From contig MFQT01000016.1 of the NCBI GenBank assembly GCA_001783145.1, forward strand, positions 3,796 to 67,795: a DNA stretch of 64,000 nucleotides. Direction: 5' to 3'. The notes under the pieces were generated by a model. The model was given only the letters and a program-made list of their open reading frames with translations. It did not search any database and was not told the origin of the DNA. Of this stretch, positions 1 to 49,913 are shown one piece after another. This DNA comes from Candidatus Magasanikbacteria bacterium RIFOXYB2_FULL_38_10 (GTDB lineage Bacteria > Patescibacteriota > Patescibacteriia > Magasanikbacterales > UBA10003). The number at the start of each line of letters is the position of its first letter. The first letter of the stretch is position 1. The position numbers and the translations under genes were made by a program.

Positions 1-305
1 GGAAAATTATTGTCATAGAAGGCGTCCGACGTCTGGCTGACATCAGCTATTTAGGCCAACTTCCTAATTTTGTTTTAGTGGAAATTTTTGCTGACCCTAA
101 AATCAGATATGAACGTTTGATCAAACGTGGAGAAAATGCCGATGACACTAAAAAAACTTATGAAGAATTTTTAGCCGACCATCAGCGTTCTACCGAACTT
201 TCCATCCTAAATGTAATCACACAAGCCAAAGAAAAAATAGACAACAATGGCAATTGGGAAAACCTACACCGGCAATTAGATGATTTGGTTGCCAAATATA
301 CGTAA
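1..305 (+). CDS. C-terminal fragment of a P-loop nucleotide/nucleoside kinase-like protein (5' end outside window)
   Basis: The reading frame is open from position 3 (translation ...KIIVIEGVRRLADISYLGQLPNFVLVEIFADPKIRYERLIKRG...) and stops at 305. It resembles the lid/C-terminal part of small NMP/dephospho-CoA kinase-like proteins. No P-loop is visible because the N-terminus is missing. Confidence 0.3.
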   Translation, partial: KIIVIEGVRRLADISYLGQLPNFVLVEIFADPKIRYERLIKRGENADDTKKTYEEFLADHQRSTELSILNVITQAKEKIDNNGNWENLHRQLDDLVAKYT

Positions 306-1313: not shown

Positions 1314-2786
1314 ATGGCCGAAAAAGGACCACAGGAGGAAAAAAAATCTAATGAACTTTCTGTTTACAGCTTGGATTATTTAAAACCAGAAGTGGTAGCT
1401 GTGGCCTTTGCCAAATGTTCTCGTTCGCCAGAATCTTTTGCCGATATCGCCGCGGAATTAACCGATGCCAAATCCGCTGATTTTCATGAAAAATGGGTGG
1501 TGGGCTATGGACATTCCAGTGTAGCGGAACACGCCACCTTGCATATGGCCATAGAAAACGTTTCCATTTTGGCCACCAAAGCAATAGAAGACAATCGTTT
1601 AGCCTCTTACACGGAAAAATCCACTCGCTATCAAGTTTTTGATAAAACCAAATACTACAAACCGCAAAATATTCTAAATTCATCCTTGGCTGAGGAATAT
1701 CAAAAAACCATGGATTATATTTTTGATACTTACACAGAGATGAATGAGCCTGTGAAAGAGTTCATTACCAAAAAATATCCGCGCGCAGAGGAAGAACCGG
1801 AAAAAATTTATAATGTCATTACCAAAGCGCGTATTTGTGATAATATTCGCTACCTTTTGCCCACCGCTACCCTAACTAATCTAGGTATGACCGCCAACGC
1901 TCGCGCATTTGAACACGCCATTGTTAAACTTTTGTCTCATCCCTTGGAAGAAATGCGTACTATTGGAGAACAAATGAAAAAAACAGCCCTAGAAATAACC
2001 CCCACTTTGATAAAATTCGCCAATGCCAATGAATACCTTAAACAAACTCCAACTAATTTAACCAATCTCTCCATCAATTTTTTGCCAACCGACAGCGCAC
2101 CTGTTAACCCTGTAGAAATTGTACGATACGATGAAGAGGCGGAAGACAAATTAATTACCACACTCCTTTATCGCGGTTCCAATCTTCCTTACAAACAAAT
2201 CTTAAGTGAGGTAAAAAAGATGCCCCAAGAAGCTAAAGAAAAAGTAATTGATGAAGCTTTAAAAAATCGAGCGGCTTTTGATGCTCCTTTGCGTGAACTG
2301 GAACACATCTATTATACTTTTGACATTTTAATGGATTATGGCGCTTTTCGCGACATTCAACGCCACCGCATGAATACGCAAACCAACCAGGATGTCACCA
2401 TTGTACATGGTTATGAAACTCCGGAAGAAATTGTAGAGGCCGGCTTGCAAGACAAATTTAAAGAAGTAATGAATCGCGCCGTGGATCTTTATCAAAAAAT
2501 TTATCCGATTTTCCCCAAAGAAGCACAGTATGTAGTGCCTTTGGCTTTTAGAAAACGCACACTTTTTACTTGGAATTTGCGGGAATTACACCATTTTATT
2601 TCCCTTAGAAGCGGCAAAAAGGGACACATTTCTTATCGCCGCATTGCCCAGGCTTGTTGGGAAAAATTAAACCAAGTACATCCCCTCTTAGCCAAGTATA
2701 TTAAGGTTGATATGAGCGAAGGATCCTCTTCTTGGGCCTCTACCATGTTCAAGCCGGAGTATTCTTATAAACCAAAAATGGACTAA
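1314..2786 (+). CDS. thyX: FAD-dependent thymidylate synthase ThyX, long tandem-duplicated form
   Basis: N-half has the Thy1-family block GHSSVAEHATLHMAIENVSILATKAIEDNRLASYTEKSTRY, where the RHR of the ThyX motif is replaced by DNR. C-half has a canonical FRDIQRHRMNTQTNQ (RHR...Q...) motif. The gene sits immediately upstream of tmk. Confidence 0.6.
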   Translation: MAEKGPQEEKKSNELSVYSLDYLKPEVVAVAFAKCSRSPESFADIAAELTDAKSADFHEKWVVGYGHSSVAEHATLHMAIENVSILATKAIEDNRLASYTEKSTRYQVFDKTKYYKPQNILNSSLAEEYQKTMDYIFDTYTEMNEPVKEFITKKYPRAEEEPEKIYNVITKARICDNIRYLLPTATLTNLGMTANARAFEHAIVKLLSHPLEEMRTIGEQMKKTALEITPTLIKFANANEYLKQTPTNLTNLSINFLPTDSAPVNPVEIVRYDEEAEDKLITTLLYRGSNLPYKQILSEVKKMPQEAKEKVIDEALKNRAAFDAPLRELEHIYYTFDILMDYGAFRDIQRHRMNTQTNQDVTIVHGYETPEEIVEAGLQDKFKEVMNRAVDLYQKIYPIFPKEAQYVVPLAFRKRTLFTWNLRELHHFISLRSGKKGHISYRRIAQACWEKLNQVHPLLAKYIKVDMSEGSSSWASTMFKPEYSYKPKMD

Positions 2787-19309: not shown

Positions 19310-20992
19310 CTATTCCACCACTCTAAAAACTTCTTCAACCGAAGTGATGCCTTGTAAAGCTTTTAGCAAACCGTCTTGAGCCATAGTGATCATACCATTC
19401 TTAATAGCCACCTCTTCCATAGCATAACCGGAAACATCATTTTTTAAAATTAAAGCCTCAATTTCTTTGTTCATTTCTAAAAGTTCATAGATACCAATAC
19501 GTCCTTTATAACCCAAGCCATTACATGCTTCGCAACCAACAGGACCATAAAATTTTAAATTATCTAAAATGATTTGATGCTTGGTTAAAAATTCCGCTGG
19601 TAATTTTTGTAAAGTTTCTCTAGCTTTCTTTAAAGACATTTCCTCAAGAGAAATTTCTTTTTTACAAACATTGCACAAACGACGCACCAAGCGTTGACCC
19701 ATGACCGCATTTAAAGCTGGCGCCAGCAAAAAGGGTTTAACGCCCATAGATAAAAACCTGGGCACAGCTCCAGCGGCATTATTGGTATGGATGGTAGAAA
19801 GCATAAAATGCCCGGTCAAAGCCGCTTGAATAGCCGTTTCCGCTGTTTCTAAATCTCTAATTTCACCTACCATGACAATATCCGGATCTTGACGCAACAA
19901 GGAACGCAAACCTTTGACAAAAGTATATTCACGGCTGGCATCAATTTGGCTTTGATTAACCCCCGGCATTTTATATTCCACAGGATCTTCTAAAGTAATA
20001 ATTTTTACTCCCGGTTTATTTAATTGCTGTAAAATGGCATACAAAGTGGTAGTTTTACCGGATCCAGTGGGGCCGGTTGTAATTACCATACCCGAAGGTC
20101 TTTCTATTTGTTTTTTTAAAGCCCCCAGAAGGGTGTCTTGTAAACCCAACTCTTCAAAACTTAAAGCTGACACTGATTTTAAAATGCGCATTACCACTGA
20201 TTCCCCAAAAACCGTAGGCAAAGTAGAAACACGAACATCAACTTTTGCGTTTTTCAAAACAATGGTATAACGGCCGTCTTGCGGGGTATCAATAATATTA
20301 ATTTTCAATCCCGCCAAAAGTTTGATCCTGGAAATTATCCGTGACCATAATTCTTTAGAAATTAACCCTGCTTCTTGCAAAATTCCGTCCAAACGATAGC
20401 GTACCACCGCACCCTCTTCTTCAGATTCCACGTGAACATCCGAAGCCTCCAATTTTAAAGCAGCCGCCACCAACAGAGTAACCGAGTCTGTCACATTATC
20501 AAGATTGGCCAATTGTTTTTTAAACTCTATTAAAGAATTGATGCTGGAGCCTAAACGTTCCAAATCTTGTTCCGTGATACTAACATCTTTGGTGATTGGT
20601 TTAATAACAGGCAGAGCGGAATAAAATTTAACCGCTTCTTTAAAGCTGTTTTCCGAAATTAAATAAATAACGCCGCGGCTGTGATGCCTTTCTTCCAGAA
20701 CATGCAAAAGTTCTTTGGCTTCTTCTTTTTGTGGATTGATGGCGCCCAACCTAATTTCCGATCCGGTAAACAAAAAACACACGACCTTCTTTTTTTGCGC
20801 TTCAATCTCGGGAATTAAACTAATGGCTTCCGCTGTAATTGGAAAACGAAAAAGATTAATATAAGGCGCGCCCAAAGACCCCGCCAATTTTTCCGCCTCG
20901 GTCTCTTTTTCTTTAATGACAATATCATGCATCTTGCCGGCCAATTTGGCGGCCGATTCATCAGAGGCTAATTTTAAAGACACTTTAGGCAT
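19310..20992 (-). CDS. pilB: type IV pilus / type II secretion assembly ATPase (PilB/GspE family)
   Basis: Walker A GPTGSGKTTT, Asp/His boxes and a C-terminal tetracysteine (CNVCKK...CEAC) typical of PilB/GspE. Confidence 0.85.
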   Translation of the reverse strand: MPKVSLKLASDESAAKLAGKMHDIVIKEKETEAEKLAGSLGAPYINLFRFPITAEAISLIPEIEAQKKKVVCFLFTGSEIRLGAINPQKEEAKELLHVLEERHHSRGVIYLISENSFKEAVKFYSALPVIKPITKDVSITEQDLERLGSSINSLIEFKKQLANLDNVTDSVTLLVAAALKLEASDVHVESEEEGAVVRYRLDGILQEAGLISKELWSRIISRIKLLAGLKINIIDTPQDGRYTIVLKNAKVDVRVSTLPTVFGESVVMRILKSVSALSFEELGLQDTLLGALKKQIERPSGMVITTGPTGSGKTTTLYAILQQLNKPGVKIITLEDPVEYKMPGVNQSQIDASREYTFVKGLRSLLRQDPDIVMVGEIRDLETAETAIQAALTGHFMLSTIHTNNAAGAVPRFLSMGVKPFLLAPALNAVMGQRLVRRLCNVCKKEISLEEMSLKKARETLQKLPAEFLTKHQIILDNLKFYGPVGCEACNGLGYKGRIGIYELLEMNKEIEALILKNDVSGYAMEEVAIKNGMITMAQDGLLKALQGITSVEEVFRVVE

Positions 20993-38674: not shown

Positions 38675-39382
38675 ATGTCTTTAATCAACATTACAATTCC
38701 TGTTTTTAACGAAGAAATTATTTTAGAATCCAGTCTTAAAAAATTATCTGACTTTTGCGCTAAAAGTTTAAAAGACGACTGGTTTATGGTGGTGGTTAAT
38801 AACAATTCAACGGATGCCACAGCTTTAATTTGTAAAAGAATATCTCAAAACAATACCCGCATTAAATGCCTTAATCTGCCTCAAAAAGGCAAGGGCTTGG
38901 CCATTCAGGAAGGTTGGCAAAGTTTTTCCGCTGACTATTACATTTTTATGGATGCTGATTTAGCCACAGATTTGGAGGCCTTGCCAAAAATGATAGAGGA
39001 ATTAAAAAAAGGAGCCCCTGCAATAATTGGTTCACGCCGCTTGCCCCTTTCCCAAGTAGAAAGATCCGTATTACGCGATCTTGTTTCTTTAACTTATTTA
39101 AAAATAGCTAATTTAATGCTTAACCTTAAGTTAAGCGATTTAGCCTGCGGTTTTAAGGGAGTAAACAACGAAATTAAAGAAAAAATACTGCCCAAGATAA
39201 AAGACAGGGCTTGGTTTTGGGACACAGAAATGCTTTTTTGGGCCAAACGAGCGGGATTTAAAATAAAAGAAATCCCGGTCATTTGGACCGAGACTCCTGA
39301 TCAAAAAAGAAAAAGCAAAGTGGGAATTTTAAAGGTGGGTTTTAAAAATTTTCTGTCACTGTTTAAAATCCGCTATTTATAA
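38675..39382 (+). CDS. GT2 polyprenol-phosphate glycosyltransferase (Dpm1/GtrB-like)
   Basis: ITIPVFNEE...VVVNNNSTDAT...FMDADL is the classic GT-A fold DxD of dolichol/polyprenol-phosphate mannosyl/glucosyltransferases. Confidence 0.75.
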   Translation: MSLINITIPVFNEEIILESSLKKLSDFCAKSLKDDWFMVVVNNNSTDATALICKRISQNNTRIKCLNLPQKGKGLAIQEGWQSFSADYYIFMDADLATDLEALPKMIEELKKGAPAIIGSRRLPLSQVERSVLRDLVSLTYLKIANLMLNLKLSDLACGFKGVNNEIKEKILPKIKDRAWFWDTEMLFWAKRAGFKIKEIPVIWTETPDQKRKSKVGILKVGFKNFLSLFKIRYL

Positions 39383-39843
39383 AATGATTGGGTTTCCGCA
39401 GGAAGAATATCAGACGCTGCTGTTTCCGGAGCATAGGTTGTACTGCGTAAAAGAAAAAGAGTAATTAATAAAACAATACCATAAGCGGCGAGGACAATAA
39501 CAAGTCCGATGACGCCGTTTTTTAAATATTTCTGAGCCTCTTCTACTTTTTTAGACTCTCCGGCAGAGGTCATCCATAAAAAACCGGCGTAAACAATCAA
39601 GCCCAAGAAAATTATACCCACGATTCCCAAAAAAACTTTAATCAGATTAGCGACTGTTTGTCGCGGGTCTTGGGTGCTCAAACCAGCCACATTGGTTGCC
39701 GCGCTAAATTGTTGATTAATAATATTGATTACTTTATCGCTCCCTCCTGATTCGTCGGCTGAAACATTTTTTACAAAAAAAGTATTTATAAAAAAGCTTA
39801 AGGCTAAAAAAAGAGGAAAAAATAAAAAAAATATTTTTCTCAT
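39373..39843 (-). CDS. TrbC/VirB2-like pilin-family small membrane protein (array member 9)
   Basis: Signal peptide followed by a variable region, then the conserved hairpin VFLGIVGIIFLGLIVYAGFLWMTSAGESKKVEEAQKYLKNGVIGLVIVLAAYGIV. Confidence 0.6.
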   Translation of the reverse strand: MRKIFFLFFPLFLALSFFINTFFVKNVSADESGGSDKVINIINQQFSAATNVAGLSTQDPRQTVANLIKVFLGIVGIIFLGLIVYAGFLWMTSAGESKKVEEAQKYLKNGVIGLVIVLAAYGIVLLITLFLLRSTTYAPETAASDILPAETQSFYK

Positions 39844-39853
39844 AATTTTGTAA

Positions 39854-40270
39854 TTAAACGGGATTCAAATAAAAAATTGCCAAAACTCTGACCAGAACAA
39901 AACGGGTAATACCCGCAGCGGCTAAAACAATAATTAAGCCGATAATTCCATTTTTTAAATATTTTTGGGCATCCTCCACTTTCTTAGGCTCTCCACCGGC
40001 TGTCATCCATAAATATCCGGCAAAAACCACCAAACCTAAAAAAACTACACCCAAAAGACCCAGAACCGCATAAATAACAAATCCTATAATCTCAGACAAG
40101 GTCATTTCATTAGCCTGTCCATAACCACTTTCTCTTTGCACATTTTGCAATAAAGTACCAGGACCATCCACTGCAGAGCAAAAACTGCTCCAAGAAAAAA
40201 ATAGGTTGGCTACCAAACTAAAAATTAAAACCCCCCAACTAATATTTTTAAAATTAAAAAATTTAAACAT
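39854..40270 (-). CDS. TrbC/VirB2-like pilin-family protein (array member 8)
   Basis: Conserved block LGVVFLGLVVFAGYLWMTAGGEPKKVEDAQKYLKNGIIGLIIVLAAAGI. Confidence 0.6.
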   Translation of the reverse strand: MFKFFNFKNISWGVLIFSLVANLFFSWSSFCSAVDGPGTLLQNVQRESGYGQANEMTLSEIIGFVIYAVLGLLGVVFLGLVVFAGYLWMTAGGEPKKVEDAQKYLKNGIIGLIIVLAAAGITRFVLVRVLAIFYLNPV

Positions 40271-40278
40271 AAAATTAT

Positions 40279-40701
40279 TCAGGAGTTGTCCCCCCCCCCC
40301 CCAAATTCAATACCGCTGGCACCGGTTAAATAAAAAACTACAAAATAAGTAATAGCGTAAGCGGCTACCACAATTATTAAACCAACGATAGATCTTTTAA
40401 TTATATCCTGTGCTTCATCCACTTCTTTAGATTCACCCCTGGCTAACATCCACTTAAAACCGCCGTAAATCATTAAAATCAAAAATATCACCCCCAACAA
40501 AACTAAAGCCGCCTCAATTATACCCCCCACAACAGCTTCTAATTGTTTAGGTTCTCCGCCGTAAGCTGGTGCCAGTTTTCCAAGTTCTGTTCCGGCATTT
40601 TTTATAGTAGGGTTATCTTGCGCCAAAGCTTGCAACTGACTAAAAATAAAAAAACCGGAAATAATAAGGAAAAAACTATAAAACAAAACTTTTTTAAACA
40701 T
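40279..40701 (-). CDS. TrbC/VirB2-like pilin-family protein (array member 7) with 3' poly-G tract
   Basis: Conserved block LLGVIFLILMIYGGFKWMLARGESKEVDEAQDIIKRSIVGLIIVVAAYAI. The C-terminal ...IEFGGGGDNS is encoded by a G13 homopolymer. Confidence 0.6.
   Translation of the reverse strand: MFKKVLFYSFFLIISGFFIFSQLQALAQDNPTIKNAGTELGKLAPAYGGEPKQLEAVVGGIIEAALVLLGVIFLILMIYGGFKWMLARGESKEVDEAQDIIKRSIVGLIIVVAAYAITYFVVFYLTGASGIEFGGGGDNS
40290..40302 (-). repeat. 13-nt homopolymeric G tract (C13 on the plus strand) inside the 3' end of array member 7
   Basis: Counted directly as gtc + cccccccccc + cc. It encodes the GGGG near the stop codon. The next pilin paralog starts 9 nt downstream. Confidence 0.9.
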
Positions 40702-40705
40702 AAAA

Positions 40706-41098
40706 TTATGTTGTTACAGCGGCTACAATCCTGGTTATTAAAAATTGAGAAATGGCGTAAGCTAAAATAACCACTATTATACCAATAATAGCCATAGTAA
40801 TGGTATCTTTAGCCGTTTCCACATCTTTAGTGTCTCCTTTGGCCAGCATCCACTTAAAACCGCCGTAAATCATTAAAACAAAAAAGATTATGCCAATTAA
40901 AGACAGGGCGTAGCCGGTTAAACGCGTGACATAAGCTTCTACAGTTGAATTTTCAGACGTATTTAAGCCGGTTTTTTGAGCCGATTGATTAGTAATTTCC
41001 AAAGCATTTTTAAAATTACCAAGTTGCGCCACAGCCGGTGTTAGGATAGTTAAACAAAATAAAATTGACAAAGAAAAAACAAATATTTTTTTAAACAT
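40706..41098 (-). CDS. TrbC/VirB2-like pilin-family protein (array member 6)
   Basis: Conserved block LIGIIFFVLMIYGGFKWMLAKGDTKDVETAKDTITMAIIGIIVVILAYAI. The start is set at MFKKIF (41098) to avoid overlap with the upstream gene. Confidence 0.6.
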   Translation of the reverse strand: MFKKIFVFSLSILFCLTILTPAVAQLGNFKNALEITNQSAQKTGLNTSENSTVEAYVTRLTGYALSLIGIIFFVLMIYGGFKWMLAKGDTKDVETAKDTITMAIIGIIVVILAYAISQFLITRIVAAVTT

Positions 41099-41102
41099 AC
41101 TT

Positions 41103-41447
41103 TTATTGAGCCACAGCAAAGACATATTTAGTAATTACGTATGAGGCGGCCACAATAATAATACCAATAATAGAATTGATAATGATATCCTTAGCTTCTC
41201 CGGTTTGTTTGGTGTCGCCTCTGGCAGTCATCCACAAAAAACCGCCGTAAATCATTAAAGCAAAAAAGATCACGCCTATTAAAGACAAGCCGGCTCCCAA
41301 AATTTGCCCTACCCTGGTCTGAATAGTGCCCTCCATAGGAACACCGGCTCCCTTAGCCGTTTCTTGCAGGCCATATTGTGCCAAACAATAAGGAGCCAAA
41401 GCAAAAGAGGAAAAAATTACCGCTAACCAAGAAAAAATTTTTTTCAT
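41103..41447 (-). CDS. TrbC/VirB2-like pilin-family protein (array member 5)
   Basis: Conserved block LIGVIFFALMIYGGFLWMTARGDTKQTGEAKDIIINSIIGIIIVAASYVI. Confidence 0.6.
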   Translation of the reverse strand: MKKIFSWLAVIFSSFALAPYCLAQYGLQETAKGAGVPMEGTIQTRVGQILGAGLSLIGVIFFALMIYGGFLWMTARGDTKQTGEAKDIIINSIIGIIIVAASYVITKYVFAVAQ

Positions 41448-41718
41448 AATTTATTCGGAGATAATTGGAAATTTTGGAAAATAATTGTTTTAAATATGAC
41501 ACAGATTCTTTGCCTGCGGCTCAAGATAACGTGTAAAAAGCTGGCAATGAAACGCCTAACGATAAACTCACAACAATCAATTTCCAAAATTTCTAATCTC
41601 TTAAGGGACGGGTGCTTTAAAAAAGCCCAAAGATCTAGACTTAAGTTTCCGCTTAAGCCTTAGGCCTTAGAAACCTATTTCCAAATCTTTTTCCCGTCCC
41701 TCAAACATTTTCAAAATA

Positions 41719-42117
41719 CTATGGAGTGGTGGTTGCATTAACCAAACTGTTCACCACGAAGCTGGCAATAGCGTAAGCCGCTAAAATAATAGCCAAACCA
41801 ATTACACCATACATAATTCTCTTTTTGGCTTCGTCTGTAGCTTTTTCATTGCCTCCGGCAGTCATCCATTCAAAGCCGCCAATTAAGATAATAACCACGG
41901 CTACGATACCAAGAAGCCCCATGGCTGTTTTGATAATTGTAGCTACTGTCTGACGAACATCTTTGGTGCCAAGTCCGGTATAGGTGCCATAAGAAATACC
42001 CAAATCATTGGCATTAATAAGCCCTTGAGCTGAAGCGGCCACTGGCAAAACCAAGAGCGCCATAACAAACAGGCTGAGTCCGAAAGAAACAATTTTATTT
42101 GCGTTCATTTGATTCAC
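41719..42117 (-). CDS. TrbC/VirB2-like pilin-family protein (array member 4)
   Basis: Conserved block LLGIVAVVIILIGGFEWMTAGGNEKATDEAKKRIMYGVIGLAIILAAYAI. Confidence 0.6.
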   Translation of the reverse strand: MNQMNANKIVSFGLSLFVMALLVLPVAASAQGLINANDLGISYGTYTGLGTKDVRQTVATIIKTAMGLLGIVAVVIILIGGFEWMTAGGNEKATDEAKKRIMYGVIGLAIILAAYAIASFVVNSLVNATTTP

Positions 42118-42158
42118 CTCCCTTCTTAAAAATTTGATTTTGATTATTTATCTATAAG

Positions 42159-42674
42159 TTATTCTACCGGACAAATAGACAAGTCTTTACAAAGTCCCGG
42201 AACCAGAACACCTCTTGGGCAGGAAGCGGAAGTATCTTTAATATCAGCCGTAGTGGTAAGCTGTGAACACTGATAAACAGGATCCTGAATCACACAACAT
42301 TTAGGACCGGGGGTGCCCGTTGTCAATCCCCTGATTAAAAAATCCACTAAAAAATAACTGCTAAAAATTATAGCTAAACCCACTACCGACCATAAAAAAA
42401 CATCCCTACCTTTCTTAATTTTAGCAGGTTCACCCTGCGAGGTCAACCACAAAAAACCGCCATAAATAAAAAGTAAAAGGGCAATGGAACCACTAACGGC
42501 AATGGCTCCTTTAGCCACCTTGCCGGCAAAAGTCAAAACGCTCTGTTTGGTAATTTCTTGCTGACCCAAAGGGTTAGGAAGGCCTTGCTGTGCCCAAACT
42601 TGAGCCGAGAAACCCAAAATAAAAATTAAGGACAAGACCAAAATTATTTTTTTAATTTTTTTCTGCTGTTTCAT
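42159..42674 (-). CDS. TrbC/VirB2-like pilin-family protein (array member 3) with Cys-rich C-terminal extension
   Basis: Conserved block SIALLLFIYGGFLWLTSQGEPAKIKKGRDVFLWSVVGLAIIFSSYFLV, followed by a 6-Cys tail (KCCVIQDPVYQCSQ...SCPRGVLVPGLCKDLSICPVE). Confidence 0.55.
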   Translation of the reverse strand: MKQQKKIKKIILVLSLIFILGFSAQVWAQQGLPNPLGQQEITKQSVLTFAGKVAKGAIAVSGSIALLLFIYGGFLWLTSQGEPAKIKKGRDVFLWSVVGLAIIFSSYFLVDFLIRGLTTGTPGPKCCVIQDPVYQCSQLTTTADIKDTSASCPRGVLVPGLCKDLSICPVE

Positions 42675-42677
42675 ATT

Positions 42678-43223
42678 TTATGAGGATAAGGCGGTAAAAA
42701 CAAAATTCAAAATAAAATAACTGCTAAAAATAACAATCAAACCTATGCCGGCCCAAAGCATTGTTTGGGTGGCTTTTTTAATTTGTTCTGATTTCCCCGC
42801 AGAAGTAAGCCAAAGAAAACCGGCGTAAACAAAAAGAATAAAGGCAATAGTACCCAAAAAACCCATCACGGCCATAATAATATTGCTAATAAGGCCCTGT
42901 ACAGTTAAGCCATACAAGGGATTGACAATGGTTCCAATATTACTTGGGGAATAGGCGGCCGCGGTTTTACAATTACCCAAAGCCTCAATAAATTGAGTTT
43001 CACAATTCCTTCTGTTTTCTTCTGTCTGTGCTGGATAGCCACCTTCAATAGAGGCTGCCTGAGAATAAACTTTATCTAAACAAGCCGTATTAGCTTCTTG
43101 AGCTTTTTCGGAACAATCTTTTTCTGCGGATTTGGCCAAAGAAACAAAACTTAAATTAAAAATTAAGGCCAAAAGAAACAAAACTAAATTGACTTTAATT
43201 CCCTTTACCAAAAATCTCCGCAT
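42678..43223 (-). CDS. TrbC/VirB2-like pilin-family protein (array member 2) with Cys-containing N-terminal ectodomain
   Basis: Signal peptide, a 4-Cys ectodomain, then the conserved block FLGTIAFILFVYAGFLWLTSAGKSEQIKKATQTMLWAGIGLIVIFSSYFIL. Confidence 0.55.
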   Translation of the reverse strand: MRRFLVKGIKVNLVLFLLALIFNLSFVSLAKSAEKDCSEKAQEANTACLDKVYSQAASIEGGYPAQTEENRRNCETQFIEALGNCKTAAAYSPSNIGTIVNPLYGLTVQGLISNIIMAVMGFLGTIAFILFVYAGFLWLTSAGKSEQIKKATQTMLWAGIGLIVIFSSYFILNFVFTALSS

Positions 43224-43230
43224 AATTTTA

Positions 43231-43752
43231 CTATTTTATTTCCACGTTAATACTGCCGGTAGGTAAACTAACCGAGGTGCTTCCTCCGGCTTTAATTACG
43301 GTGTCTAAAATAAAACTTAACAAAAGCTGGGCAGAAAAAATTATAACTAAACCAATAGCCGCCGCCACCAAGGTTTCCTTACCTTTTTTAACTCTTTCCC
43401 CACCGGCCGCGGTTAAAATTACAAACCCGCCATAAATAAAAAATAATAAAGCCACACCGCCCACTACTTCAAAAGCAACATTAACTACATTAACCAAAAG
43501 CTGTAAAAAAACATTAATATTGCGGCAACCGCAGGTTTTTTCTTTAGAAGTTCCCTCAAAATAAACGCAATCGGGAAAGAACCAAGAAGGGTTGCCGGAT
43601 GAGTACAGGGGAATTCCCTTATCGTCTTTTAATTGTTTTAAATCACAAACAATCGGCTCGGTTCCTGTTTGTGCCAAAGCCTTAAAAGGTAAAGCTAAAA
43701 TAATTACCCCTAAAAAAGCAACCAGTATTCCCTTATATATTTTGCCCTCCAT
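43231..43752 (-). CDS. TrbC/VirB2-like pilin-family protein (array member 1) with Cys-containing ectodomain
   Basis: Signal peptide, a Cys-containing domain (CDLK...CVYFEG...CGC), then the block GGVALLFFIYGGFVILTAAGGERVKKGKETLVAAAIGLVIIFSAQLLL. Confidence 0.55.
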   Translation of the reverse strand: MEGKIYKGILVAFLGVIILALPFKALAQTGTEPIVCDLKQLKDDKGIPLYSSGNPSWFFPDCVYFEGTSKEKTCGCRNINVFLQLLVNVVNVAFEVVGGVALLFFIYGGFVILTAAGGERVKKGKETLVAAAIGLVIIFSAQLLLSFILDTVIKAGGSTSVSLPTGSINVEIK

Positions 43753-46129: not shown

Positions 46130-47515
46130 CTATTTAATTTCTCTCCAAGAAATTAAATGATATTCGGTTCCCACAAAAAAGGACGGGGGAGGAGAATAAG
46201 TTAAATTAGCATCGTAATTGGTAAAAGTATTGCGATAACCTGAAACCACAGAACCTCCTTGCGTCACCCAACTCCAAGTCCAAATACCTTTAGAAATAAC
46301 ACTGCCGTAAATAGTTAAATCATTCAGAATATTACCGGAATAATAAAATCTTTGGGCACTGCCGTTTTGTGCCACTACTGCGGCATCAATTTCTAAATCA
46401 TTTGGAGAATAACGCGGAATTAAAATATCTTTTTGAGCAATTAAACCTAAGGAATCAGAGCCGTCCTTAGCCGTATAAACAATATTATTAGGAATAACAA
46501 TAGTAGTGTAAGTGTTAGGATTAACGGGAAACTTGCCTGAACCCACAGTCAAATGACCTTTAACTGTCCCCTCCACCCAAACCTTATCCTCAATAAAAAT
46601 TAAACCGTTAGCAGGATTAGCAAAGTTACCTTGTAAAGTTTCATTTTTAACATCATAGGATTCATAATGTTTCACACCATTCACATCTTTGCCATAACCT
46701 GGAGAAGGAACTGGTTTTAAAGATGTCACTTTATAAAGATCAAAGGTACTGTTGCTCTTAAATTTTATATGATAACCATAGGCTCCGGAAGAAGAACGAT
46801 AAAAGCCGTCGCTCTGCGCTCCGGTCCTGACATTGGATAAATCTATAGTAATGCCATCAAAATCAAAAGCCGGTATGGGAAATTGCCAAAAATTAGTTGG
46901 GCCTCCGGCGCCCCAAATACCCGGCTTGGTGGTATTATTGCATCCCGAACCAAAAATGGGTTTACAAACATAAGTTGGTTTAGCCGAGGTAATCGGCGCA
47001 TCAGCCGTACCATCAAACCTAATACCACCGTTGGCATGTAATTTTCCGTGAATAATTTCATTATCACCAATCCAAACATCCGAATTGGTTAAAAAAGCAA
47101 AATCAGCCAAAGAAGGAAGACCCATTCTGATTTGAACTTTTCTTTTAGTATTAGGTTGATCCAACGTATAACCGGTGGAAACAATAGTGACAACAGAAGA
47201 GCCAGTGGTCGGCGGGGTTATTTCCAAACTAAATCTGCCAATAATATTGCCATCTTTATCCAGATAATCATGAACATAGGGTCCGGGGCCGCCTGTGCCG
47301 TCCTGATAATCAGTACCACTGTGCGCCAAATGCCAGCGGTAATATTCAGCACCAGCTTCGGCAATTTGAAAGGCCTGCTCATTATTTTGATTAAAATGAG
47401 CCGCTCTGTTTTCCATCACTCCGAAAACAGCCACACCATTAAAAATGGCAGTGACGGCCATGGCTCCAAAAACCAGCGCAATCAGCAAAATATTTCCCTT
47501 TTTTTTACTCGGCAT
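46130..47515 (-). CDS. PilX-N-domain-like pilus assembly / minor pilin-associated protein
   Basis: N-terminal TM (ILLIALVFGAMAVTAIF), then QAFQIAEAGAEYY resembling the PilX_N AEAG motif, then a large Gly/Thr/Asn-rich beta domain. Confidence 0.5.
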   Translation of the reverse strand: MPSKKKGNILLIALVFGAMAVTAIFNGVAVFGVMENRAAHFNQNNEQAFQIAEAGAEYYRWHLAHSGTDYQDGTGGPGPYVHDYLDKDGNIIGRFSLEITPPTTGSSVVTIVSTGYTLDQPNTKRKVQIRMGLPSLADFAFLTNSDVWIGDNEIIHGKLHANGGIRFDGTADAPITSAKPTYVCKPIFGSGCNNTTKPGIWGAGGPTNFWQFPIPAFDFDGITIDLSNVRTGAQSDGFYRSSSGAYGYHIKFKSNSTFDLYKVTSLKPVPSPGYGKDVNGVKHYESYDVKNETLQGNFANPANGLIFIEDKVWVEGTVKGHLTVGSGKFPVNPNTYTTIVIPNNIVYTAKDGSDSLGLIAQKDILIPRYSPNDLEIDAAVVAQNGSAQRFYYSGNILNDLTIYGSVISKGIWTWSWVTQGGSVVSGYRNTFTNYDANLTYSPPPSFFVGTEYHLISWREIK

Positions 47516-48116
47516 ATTTTAAATTTCTTATCTCGGCCTTGGCATTAATAGTAATGGGCAAAGGAGAAAGTCCGGGCTTTTGATCTATCACCAGACTCAT
47601 TTGTACCATACGCACGTCTAAAACATTAATTGGAAAAGATAAAGCGGAACCAAGACCGGTATAATTTTTATTAAAATAAGAAAAAGGTTGCTGGTCGGCT
47701 GTTAAGTCATGAACCACACCGGTGATTACTTCTGTTGAATCATTATAAGATAAGGGATTGCCCGAGGGTTTGATGACTCCTTTTTTAAAAAGCGACCCCG
47801 AAACAAAATATCTTACTTTTTCCGCGTAGCTATCAGAATCAATATCACTATAGAAAGCAAAAGAAGTGGGAGTGGCTTCGGCCACCATATAAGAACCAAT
47901 GCTGGAGGCTGAGGCGTTACGTAATTCTTTAACAAAATCCGCGGCTACGCGTCTGGCTTCCTTTTGAGCCGTCAGTTGATTATAAATAATATTATTAGAA
48001 GAAAAAATGGTGCTAATGAATAAAGCGGCCACGGTAATAAACAAAATAAAAATGCCTAAAGAAACCAAAACTTCTATTAAAGTAAAACCGGAAAATTTTT
48101 TAAAAATTAAAAGCAT
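47505..48116 (-). CDS. type IV prepilin-like protein (minor pilin / pseudopilin)
   Basis: N-terminal prepilin cleavage/methylation motif FSGFTLIEVLVSLGIFILF. Confidence 0.65.
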   Translation of the reverse strand: MLLIFKKFSGFTLIEVLVSLGIFILFITVAALFISTIFSSNNIIYNQLTAQKEARRVAADFVKELRNASASSIGSYMVAEATPTSFAFYSDIDSDSYAEKVRYFVSGSLFKKGVIKPSGNPLSYNDSTEVITGVVHDLTADQQPFSYFNKNYTGLGSALSFPINVLDVRMVQMSLVIDQKPGLSPLPITINAKAEIRNLKYAE

Positions 48117-48122
48117 AAAAAA

Positions 48123-49913
48123 TTACGGGCTCATTAATACTTCCACCTGAGAGCGGCCACTGACATCGGCCGTGGTGATTACGTTTTGATAACCAGGGAG
48201 AGTTACCGTTAAATTGTAAGTTCCCGAATCTAAACCGTAAAAAAAAGATTGGCCCGGGGGCGTGCAACCCGAGGTATAACTAATGGACACTTCTGATAAT
48301 TGCGGAGAAAAATTTTGATTAGCGGTTGATAAACTTATTTTATAACGCAAAAATCTGTCACCATTATGCACTGCGGAAATATTGCTATCACTGACAGTAT
48401 AATAAGTTTCTCCGGTTCCGTCCGGACCTAAAAAATTCCAAGAACTTGGCGCCGAGGAACTGGCCGTAGCAATTTGAAATTTAATAGAATCAACTCCGGT
48501 TTGAGCTGGCTGACTTAAGGGTTCCCAAATGATATTGGTAAAATTGCTGGCTGTTCCAAAGTCAATGGTGGAGGAGATTAATTCGCCGCTCCATTGATAT
48601 TTATTGCCGATTTTTTTTAAATACAAATCACCGGCGGGGCTATTTGTTTCCACTCCTCCATCTTGTAAAAAATAGCCTGTTTCGTCTATAAAGTTTTCTT
48701 GTCCCGAACCGCCCGACCAATCTGTTTGTCTTAAATAACCGCGTCCGGTAACCAAGGAATCGCTAAATGTCCCTTTATCAATAGAAACCGCGGCGTTAGT
48801 TAAAGGAAGTTTGGTGGCGCTATCTTTAATTGTTAAAAGCAAAGAGTTGGTTGTGTGTGAATGCAAGATTACAGATAAGTTTTGAGTAGCATCGGGAACT
48901 AAAAAAACCGGCAAGGTGGGAATGGTTCCGGCCACATCGTAACTTCCGTTAGACAAATTAAAACTATAAGTGTCCCATTCCAAATTATCTAAAACTTTTG
49001 TTCCCTCACTATTGGTGGAAACGGTTTGATCATAACGGTAAACATTAGGGTTTTCACCAATCACCTTGGAGCCACTGACGGAGAAAGAAATGTTGGAAAG
49101 GCCACTGCATTGCGGATTGATAGCAGAAAAATTGATGGTAGAAATTTTATCAATGGAAAAAGAAAGATTAGTGACGGTTTGTGAAGCCACGGTAGCCAAG
49201 GGTTTGACTGGATTAGGATTATTGACAGTTTCGGGAATAGTGTAATCGGTTGTGTAGCCATTTTTAGAAACAACAACAGAATACCCCTCGGTAGAAGTGG
49301 CTATGTCAATTATTTTTAATTCCCCATTAGTGTTAGTGGTATCGGTAAGATCAACATTGGGATTAACTAAAGTATTGGTAATATGAACTGTGGCCCCAGG
49401 CACCAGCAGGCCGGAAGCATCAAAAACTTTAATAAAAAGAGAACCGTTTTGGGAATCGGCTTCCGTATTTTTAGGAGAGATTCGAGCGGTTAAAATTGTA
49501 GGCCTTACCTGTCCGCCGGTGCAAGACGAACAAAAAACACGGACCTCGGCCAATTTAAAGTCGGCCGGAGAGGTATCATTGGGAGAACCTCCGGCCAAAC
49601 CGTCAAAAGGATCATCTATATTACGGATGGTTGTTTGTACTAAAAAAGACGCTCCATTACGCAAGGTGGTAGTGGTTTGCGGCCACACCCCATTAGGCAC
49701 CCCACCAATGGTTCCGGTACTTTCATAGGGCAAATTACGTAGAGTTTCTATAACTTCATTAGCTACTTGTGTTTCCAAAACTTGCACGCGAGAAATGTAG
49801 GTGACTTTAAAAACATAAATAATCACCGCATAAACTCCGGATAGAATAACGGCAAAAATGGCAATAGAAACTAAAATTTCAATTAAAGTAAATCCTTTTT
49901 TAATCCTGGTCAT
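48123..49913 (-). CDS. large type IV prepilin-like protein with carboxypeptidase-regulatory-like beta-sandwich domains
   Basis: N-terminal KKGFTLIEILVSIAIFAVIL prepilin motif. Internal GATVHITN...TNGELKIIDIATSTEGYSVVVSKNGY resembles a CarbopepD_reg fold. Rich in T/S/N. Confidence 0.65.
   Translation of the reverse strand: MTRIKKGFTLIEILVSIAIFAVILSGVYAVIIYVFKVTYISRVQVLETQVANEVIETLRNLPYESTGTIGGVPNGVWPQTTTTLRNGASFLVQTTIRNIDDPFDGLAGGSPNDTSPADFKLAEVRVFCSSCTGGQVRPTILTARISPKNTEADSQNGSLFIKVFDASGLLVPGATVHITNTLVNPNVDLTDTTNTNGELKIIDIATSTEGYSVVVSKNGYTTDYTIPETVNNPNPVKPLATVASQTVTNLSFSIDKISTINFSAINPQCSGLSNISFSVSGSKVIGENPNVYRYDQTVSTNSEGTKVLDNLEWDTYSFNLSNGSYDVAGTIPTLPVFLVPDATQNLSVILHSHTTNSLLLTIKDSATKLPLTNAAVSIDKGTFSDSLVTGRGYLRQTDWSGGSGQENFIDETGYFLQDGGVETNSPAGDLYLKKIGNKYQWSGELISSTIDFGTASNFTNIIWEPLSQPAQTGVDSIKFQIATASSSAPSSWNFLGPDGTGETYYTVSDSNISAVHNGDRFLRYKISLSTANQNFSPQLSEVSISYTSGCTPPGQSFFYGLDSGTYNLTVTLPGYQNVITTADVSGRSQVEVLMSP

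Follow-up and report, generated by a model that had tools for sequence, protein, structure and literature searches.

A 64,000-nucleotide (64-kb) stretch of a Candidatus Magasanikbacteria contig (MFQT01000016.1), hereafter the window, encodes nine tandem VirB2-like pilin paralogs on the minus strand (positions 39373..43752), and the seventh of them (gene 7, 40279..40701, −) ends in an uninterrupted run of 13 guanines that is a candidate hypermutable tract. All nine open reading frames (ORFs) lie above the gathering score of the Pfam family T4SS_pilin (PF18895), at 32.1–44.5 bits against a cutoff of 26.6; gene 7, which is 140 residues long in the G13 frame, scores 33.2 bits. Several paralogs also match TrbC (PF04956)/VirB2 at a sub-threshold level (26.8 against a cutoff of 27.9). 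A first-pass annotation of this DNA had spoken of a pilin array, and that description stands, with nine PF18895 members; judged by sequence profile, the family is that of VirB2/TrbC-like pilins of type IV secretion systems (T4SSs), not of type IV (PilA-type) pilins. At E ≤ 1e-3, 19,294 PF18895 relatives were found.

The predicted architecture of gene 7 is that expected of such a pilin. Its AlphaFold2 model, built with 56 homologs, contains a signal-peptide helix (residues 2–25) and two long helices (54–86 and 91–129), with a predicted local distance difference test score above 90 over the core (approximately residues 61–120) and below 50 for residues 135–140. The model and hydropathy agree on a signal peptide and, after it, a helical hairpin: two hydrophobic helices with a short charged loop between them. 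Within the family alignment, a GGFxWM...G core is conserved, while what follows the second helix is an unconserved stretch of 0 to ~14 residues. No part of the family is less conserved, or modeled with lower confidence, than this C-terminal tail. In gene 7 this tail is modeled as 11–15 disordered residues and holds the Gly run encoded by the tract. A sequence search of the PDB returned no match to gene 7, including to the solved VirB2/TraA pilins, and a Foldseek search of the model against the PDB returned only generic helical hairpins (best E > 0.6). With no related solved structure found by either route, the term VirB2-like is based on the Pfam profile and the hairpin architecture.

The tract occupies positions 40290..40302, exactly C13 on the plus strand and G13 on the coding (−) strand. 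It is read in frame as four GGG codons plus the first G of GAC, so that the ORF ends ...IEFGGGGDNS* at a TGA stop (40279..40281). No other G or C run in the window is longer than 7 nt; the runs next in length are a G7 and four C6. For runs of at least 13, the expectation for the window is 7e-5 when bases are drawn independently and ~0.002 under a first-order Markov model, placing this run far beyond composition and well past the length of about 8 from which a G/C run can be expected to slip. GGG is also the rarest Gly codon in the window (125 of 1217, 10.3%), and the three other Gly runs of at least three residues use mixed or GGC codons, none of them homopolymeric. On the existence, position, reading frame and improbability of the run, the first-pass annotation was right. 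Two of its figures need correction: GC content, given there as about 33%, measures 38.8% in the window, and the gap between the TGA and the ATG of the next paralog (40268..40270) is 8 nt, not 9.

The tract is real. At least six contigs, drawn from five or six independent data sets that JGI, ENA, NCBI and Logan assembled, contain it between unique flanks, which disposes of the earlier concern that it might be an assembly artefact of low-complexity reads. We also considered the poly-G artefact that arises from dark sequencing cycles and rejected it, as the unique flanks run on past both ends of the tract in many assemblies. On this point we have next to no doubt.

The next gene follows closely. 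Gene 8 (39854..40270, −) encodes a complete 138-residue prepilin with its own signal peptide, and no Shine–Dalgarno (SD)-like sequence precedes its ATG. We derived the products of G11, G12, G13 and G14 in silico. With G12 (3n), gene 7 ends ...GGGGTTPE* after 141 residues, at a TAA (40275..40277) that lies 4 nt before the next ATG; with G13 (3n+1, the window allele), it ends ...GGGGDNS* after 140 residues. With G14 or G11 (3n+2) there is no stop, and translation continues as ...GGGGGQLLNNF-MFKFFNFK... through the ATG and all of 39854..40270, giving a fusion with the complete pilin 8 of 282 or 281 residues, respectively. The C-terminal peptides that distinguish the frames are ...GIEFGGGGDNS and ...GIEFGGGGTTPE, and QLLNNFMFK marks the fusion junction. 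A change of one unit therefore always alters the product, in line with the earlier prediction that a gained or lost G would replace the tail. Of the two single-base variants of the window allele, the −1 variant acquires the TTPE tail, and the +1 variant is the one that reads in frame into gene 8, as the 282-residue fusion.

The stop codon of the G13 frame, TGA, is the rarest in the window, where it ends 3 of 47 ORFs. We considered whether TGA might instead be a sense codon (genetic code 25) and rejected this, given the ORFs that TGA does terminate, the intactness of the ORFs under code 11 and the assignment to a Magasanikbacterium.

All three predicted products occur in public data. The source population is the Candidatus Magasanikbacteria of Rifle aquifer groundwater (GW2011), and the exact gene 7 protein was found on eight public contigs. 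A single protein cluster at 90% identity contains the 140-residue form (KKS57146.1 and OGH85333.1), the 141-residue TTPE form (KKR48602.1) and a 282-residue fusion, P0064 (...FGGGGRQLLNNFMFKFF... / ...IEFGGGGRQLLNNFMFKFFNFK...), which is encoded on two JGI/ENA contigs of up to 458 kb. Exact-protein look-ups of public contigs then supplied the alleles, all of them assembly consensus sequences; another six or seven similar contigs stand outside this tally, making the allele counts lower bounds. The window and Logan SRR3989311 (L027) carry G13-ACAAC. G12 is present in ENA ERZ909595 (SRR1658466; L002/L014/L020) and in NCBI GCA_000996105.1 (L015/L018/L021), the latter together with a 21-nt deletion in gene 8. 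JGI 3300025308 (L001/L013/L019) has G11-A-G, which has the same length and protein as G13, and a contig of Logan SRR3309152 (L023) starts inside the tract with G10-A-G. On a 1.5-kb contig of ENA ERZ909596 (L022), the reading is G14-CAAC, an A>G change at the tract edge that leaves the length unchanged. P0064, known as protein only, implies G12-A-G. One-unit variation thus appears in both the uninterrupted (G12/G13) and the A-interrupted (G11AG/G12AG) lineages. The strain heterogeneity that the first-pass annotation proposed to look for is, at the level of consensus sequences, present as G12, G13, G11AG and G12AG, and P0064 is the fusion predicted for the third frame. Two further collections, metagenome_contigs and genome_contigs, contained neither the species nor the locus: a flank pattern with a variable-length gap had 0 matches in them, and protein-based scans returned only distant pilins at 40–64% identity.

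The DNA around these alleles is almost invariant. Over 20,427 columns, L002 matches the window without a mismatch, its one gap, of 1 nt, being at the tract; L018 is likewise free of mismatches and has two gaps, one at the tract and one being the 21-nt deletion ~40 nt downstream; L001 has 2 mismatches in 20,423 bp, one in the tract and one 12 nt upstream. Flank identity is otherwise 99.99–100% over 20.4 kb, and all differences in the ~72 kb of aligned contigs fall within ~70 nt of the tract. Contigs also tend to end there. At least five contigs from four or five assemblies break at or near the tract: L016 ends at its first G, L025 (from the same JGI sample as L016) and L024 begin just past it, L023 starts inside it, and L026 starts ~22 nt beyond it.

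This clustering is open to a technical explanation, in which a real tract has one fixed length in vivo and the alleles, the edge substitution and the breaks come from polymerase chain reaction (PCR) or cluster slippage, phasing and the assembler. Differences confined to the tract and its immediate surroundings resemble sequencing-error hot spots, and the breaks in at least five contigs would follow as well. The A>G call of L022 sits exactly at the tract edge on a short contig, as a typical phasing error would, L026 has a miscall at its contig end, and the whole comparison is drawn from consensus sequences rather than reads. Nevertheless, with coverage in the tens, the modal length is what a consensus normally reports; two assemblers give G12 for GWC2/SRR1658466-type data, while other samples give G13; and the fusion call sits on a 458-kb contig. 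G11-A-G, moreover, is found in three data sets (L001, L023 and P0064) with a linked second single-nucleotide polymorphism and its own +1 change, a recurrence indicating that distinct real lineages exist. We therefore consider noise an unlikely source of the whole pattern, and regard the length differences as quite probably biological.

Other variation was seen close to the tract. The two substitutions of L001/L013/L019, at 40314 (GGT>GGC) and 40291 (G>A), are the only ones in 20.4 kb relative to the window, and their clustering suggests local error-prone repair, a small conversion patch or a sequence-specific base-calling error. The 21-nt deletion is found in LBYK01000004.1 (L018/L021; product P0063, 131 residues), which lacks window positions 40232..40252 (−), codons 7–13 of gene 8 (FKNISWG). 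It falls in the n-region of the pilin 8 signal peptide, between TTTTAAT direct repeats, and the ENA assembly with the same G12 allele retains the 21 nt. It would be explained by a second polymorphism of the slippage type or by a difference between assemblies. In addition, a 1767-nt ENA contig (ERZ27254812 k141_230856; L028) carries a chimeric pilin ahead of gene 9 (positions 1..240). Its first 137 nt have no match in the window, and from the conserved IIGLIIV region onward it is 100% identical to gene 8. Either pilin paralogs or strains have recombined here, or the contig is a chimera.

The history of the tract can be read from a syntenic ortholog (L029) in a 78%-identical relative. There, the gene ends TTT GGG ACA ACT ACC CAA TAA (FGTTTQ*), with the next pilin ATG 5 nt after the TAA. 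The G12 allele ends TTT (GGG)4 ACA ACT CCT GAA TAA, and L029 stops at the homologous TAA. Since the single GGG of L029 is in the G12 frame, the ancestor had one GGG codon, from which the tract grew by 9 nt; by the same comparison, G12 with its TAA is the native frame and the G13 of the window a +1 derivative. On sequence grounds, then, the tract is a recent expansion from one GGG codon. Other Gly-rich tails among the homologs (P0049 and P0031) use mixed codons, which makes the tract specific to this lineage. Among the homologs inspected, a poly-G tail did not recur; the only comparable run is a G8 in one unrelated pilin. This G8 (L008, Ga0209515_10009244, positions 2754..2761) lies on a higher-GC, unrelated contig, just after the predicted signal-peptide cleavage site of a pilin homolog (..ARA ADNLGGAGN..), where a frameshift would give a true ON/OFF switch; it is a single case.

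These same features allow that the slippage is real in vivo and without a role, a chance expansion in a dispensable tail that produces mostly harmless changes. Such a neutral hot spot would be at home at the extreme 3′ end of a gene, in a tail that is unconserved and disordered across the family, and it need not appear in the closest ortholog, in other homologs or anywhere else in the window, as indeed it does not. Most alleles (the G13 type and G12) also leave both genes intact. However, one frame in three fuses the two genes, a change that is not obviously harmless and yet is the consensus in two contigs. Growth from G3 to G12–13 with the rarest Gly codon at 39% GC is likewise hard to obtain without run-away slippage or selection, and long G/C tracts in low-GC genomes concentrate, as a matter of general knowledge, in surface-structure contingency genes, and gene 7 is a surface-structure gene. 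Neutrality is thus an account that we find doubtful.

How gene 8 is translated bears on what the fusion frame would do. In eight of the nine pilin genes the start is AT-rich, has no SD sequence and lies 2–10 nt after, or overlaps, the end of the previous gene, and the junction produced by the G12 allele, TAATTTTATG, is identical to that between genes 6 and 7. Taken together, the SD-less starts, short junctions and shared junction sequence suggest coupling by termination–reinitiation. A clear SD sequence (AAGGGAG) is found only at gene 4 (41719..42117, −; GTG start), which is followed by a 271-nt gap, and because of this gap the array may comprise two translationally coupled blocks. The suggestion of the first-pass annotation that the tract could join the two paralogs in translation is borne out to the extent that the +1 frame fuses genes 7 and 8 and P0064 appears in public data.

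The fusion would be an unusual protein. It consists of a signal peptide and five hydrophobic segments, while natural di-pilins have a signal peptide and four. As the pilin 8 signal peptide is retained, the second hairpin should insert with inverted topology. Multi-hairpin proteins are frequent among the closest relatives in a library of 1.8 billion proteins: approximately 38 of the best 150 relatives have two or more matched stretches, and the multi-hairpin proteins inspected lack an internal signal peptide and have an even number of membrane segments. Set against these, the odd number in the fusion makes an OFF or altered state more likely than a functional di-pilin. Among the multi-hairpin relatives, P0065–P0069, P0080, P0082 and P0086 are single ORFs of 230–555 residues with 2–6 tandem T4SS_pilin hairpins. 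The linkers of P0065 and P0066 resemble decayed signal-peptidase sites, which suggests that these proteins originated by fusion of neighboring pilin genes.

From these observations we propose a mechanism in which slipped-strand mispairing in vivo changes the tract length and thereby generates the alleles in all three frames that the population contains. In Campylobacter, Haemophilus, Neisseria and Helicobacter, slippage makes G/C tracts hypermutable from a length of 8 upward, and to our knowledge, homopolymers of that length slip at high rates in every bacterium in which they have been measured. Where a low-GC genome contains such a tract, it is typically a contingency locus for a surface structure. 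In the 3n state (G12), pilin 7 would end in GGGGTTPE with the TAA 4 nt before the pilin 8 ATG, and in the 3n+1 state (G13) in GGGGDNS with the TGA 8 nt before it. By analogy with conjugative pilins, whose termini lie outside the filament, this difference of 3–4 tail residues would probably be surface-exposed. In the 3n+2 state (G14, G11 or G12AG), ribosomes would pass the pilin 8 start and make the 282-residue pilin 7::prepilin 8 fusion. After cleavage of the first signal peptide, that protein would have five rather than four membrane segments, and its second hairpin may be inserted upside-down or misprocessed. Free pilin 8 would no longer be made, since its initiation probably requires termination–reinitiation. 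The tract would then act as a heritable, reversible three-state switch on the composition of the VirB2-like pilin set: two states would differ in a short tail, and the third would remove pilin 8 and probably also pilin 7.

The same three products could in principle be made from one allele at the RNA level, where transcriptional slippage or ribosomal frameshifting would yield a fixed mixture of the DNS, TTPE and fusion forms. Runs that exceed the RNA:DNA hybrid in length can realign with pairing intact, as established in bacteria for A/T runs of at least 9; GGG GGG GGG is slippery for tRNA-Gly; and three frames with three defined products fit a recoding element. Efficient slippage during elongation, though, is documented mainly for A/T runs, and no stimulatory structure depends on tract length, the predicted mRNA forming the same weak hairpin at every length. 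RNA slippage also leaves unexplained why DNA alleles differ between assemblies. We consider recoding highly improbable. A search for a transcription terminator at the tract gave only terminator-like matches within about two standard deviations of shuffled sequences, which is within chance.

Against a role for the tract as a switch, several points must be weighed. Library PCR, Illumina base calling and assembly all tend to make errors at homopolymers of 11–14 G, the alleles are consensus calls, and a ±1 consensus difference, breaks at the tract and the edge call of L022 are also what technical noise would give. The two G12 assemblies (ENA ERZ909595 and NCBI GCA_000996105.1) may share source reads, and the G12-A-G allele is deduced from the P0064 protein, the DNA of the fusion allele being absent from the record. 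At the extreme 3′ end of the gene, a functionless hypermutable run would be tolerated, because two frames out of three alter no more than 3–4 residues of an unconserved tail, and the absence of the tract from the nearest ortholog and other homologs leaves no conservation that would argue for selection. The 64-kb window contains neither a second G/C run above 7 nt nor any other tandem repeat of note, and thus shows no sign of a genome-wide contingency-locus strategy. Finally, VirB4, VirB6 and other T4SS genes are missing from the 20 large ORFs of the window.

Balancing these points, we see the chances as about even that the tract functions as a switch on the pilin repertoire. The phase-variation reading of the first-pass annotation is supported, as far as sequence can carry it, by the rarity of the run, the three frames and their products, and the allele lengths in near-clonal assemblies. 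In vivo slippage as the source of these alleles and a switch that runs both ways are inferences from this pattern, as are the proposed topology and inactivity of the fusion, the coupling of translation between genes 7 and 8, and any phenotype or adaptive value.

Neighbors of the array encode an SBP protein, a sugar-nucleotide transferase (NTP-transferase), a GT2 protein, large membrane proteins and type IV pilus-like N_methyl proteins, and PilB, GyrA and UvrABC are encoded farther away. Type IV pilus-type genes are found a few kb from the VirB2-like array (47505..49913 and 19310..20992); they specify two N_methyl prepilin-like proteins, one of 596 residues with a CarboxypepD_reg domain, and a PilB/T2SSE ATPase. 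The window contains no T4SS ATPase.

In several respects the locus resembles the G/C-tract contingency loci of Campylobacter jejuni, Helicobacter pylori, Neisseria and Haemophilus. It shares with them an intragenic run of 11–14 G in a surface-structure gene of a low-GC genome, the existence of an interrupted variant (G11AG) and, at the level of consensus sequences, ±1 alleles in otherwise clonal DNA. One frame unites two neighboring ORFs that are annotated separately, a picture often met in the annotation of poly-G genes of C. jejuni and H. pylori. There are also differences. Here the tract lies in the last codons rather than in the 5′ part of the gene or the promoter, and this placement allows no simple ON/OFF control; instead there are two ON tails. 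The third frame, moreover, fuses two complete paralogs with signal peptides, not the halves of one split gene. Several loci per genome are usual, although not obligatory, in such systems, and one was found in 64 kb of this uncultured bacterium of the Candidate Phyla Radiation (CPR).

The array itself has described counterparts. A survey of VirB2-like arrays in Patescibacteria reported 441 arrays of 2–11 genes that are not always beside virB4, with a pilin near virB4 in only ~58% of assemblies (PMC12102498). The array in the window matches these in its nine tandem PF18895 genes, each with a signal peptide and helical hairpin, in its low paralog identity and in its CPR host, and it has no virB4 beside it within the 64 kb. 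In the published arrays, by contrast, variation is by paralog diversity only, with no simple-sequence tract or frame switching reported (PMC12102498). The VirB2 paralog families of Bartonella and Anaplasma, as far as they are described through citation in that paper, are similarly tandem and thought to diversify a surface pilus, but vary by paralog choice or recombination and not by a homopolymer. The natural poly-pilins of 2–6 units described above (P0065–P0069, P0080, P0082 and P0086) likewise place several hairpins in one polypeptide; the slippage fusion differs from them in keeping an internal signal peptide and in being one of three alternating alleles. A full-text search for literature pairing phase variation with CPR/Patescibacteria and homopolymers found none. 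The nearest case is a hypervariable gene with 9-mer repeats in a Gracilibacterium, for which slipped-strand mispairing is discussed (PMC6851277). The mechanism (homopolymeric-tract phase variation) is thus already known, as is the presence of such arrays in Patescibacteria; their combination, if confirmed, would be new relative to the literature searched.

In its fullest form, which we put forward tentatively and consider rather unlikely as a whole, our proposal is that this is the first contingency locus to be seen in CPR/Patescibacteria. The G tract would reversibly remodel the pilins for host contact or for evasion of phage or host, both by swapping a tail and by fusing prepilins, and a fusion that became fixed and lost its internal signal peptide by decay would lead to the poly-pilins. 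Should the variation prove technical, the locus would serve as a warning, because GenBank gene calls of 140, 141 and 282 residues differ here only by a homopolymer. The question is directly testable, as the Rifle time series holds deep reads for a near-clonal population.

The lifestyle assumed for CPR/Patescibacteria is attachment to host cells. VirB2-like arrays are among the few CPR surface systems found to matter experimentally, an array of this kind being essential in Ca. Southlakia epibionticum according to the account cited in PMC12102498. Whatever its function, the locus offers a natural marker for how neighboring pilin genes might fuse. If the proposed switch is true, CPR bacteria would use the same contingency-locus strategy as host-adapted pathogens to generate surface diversity.

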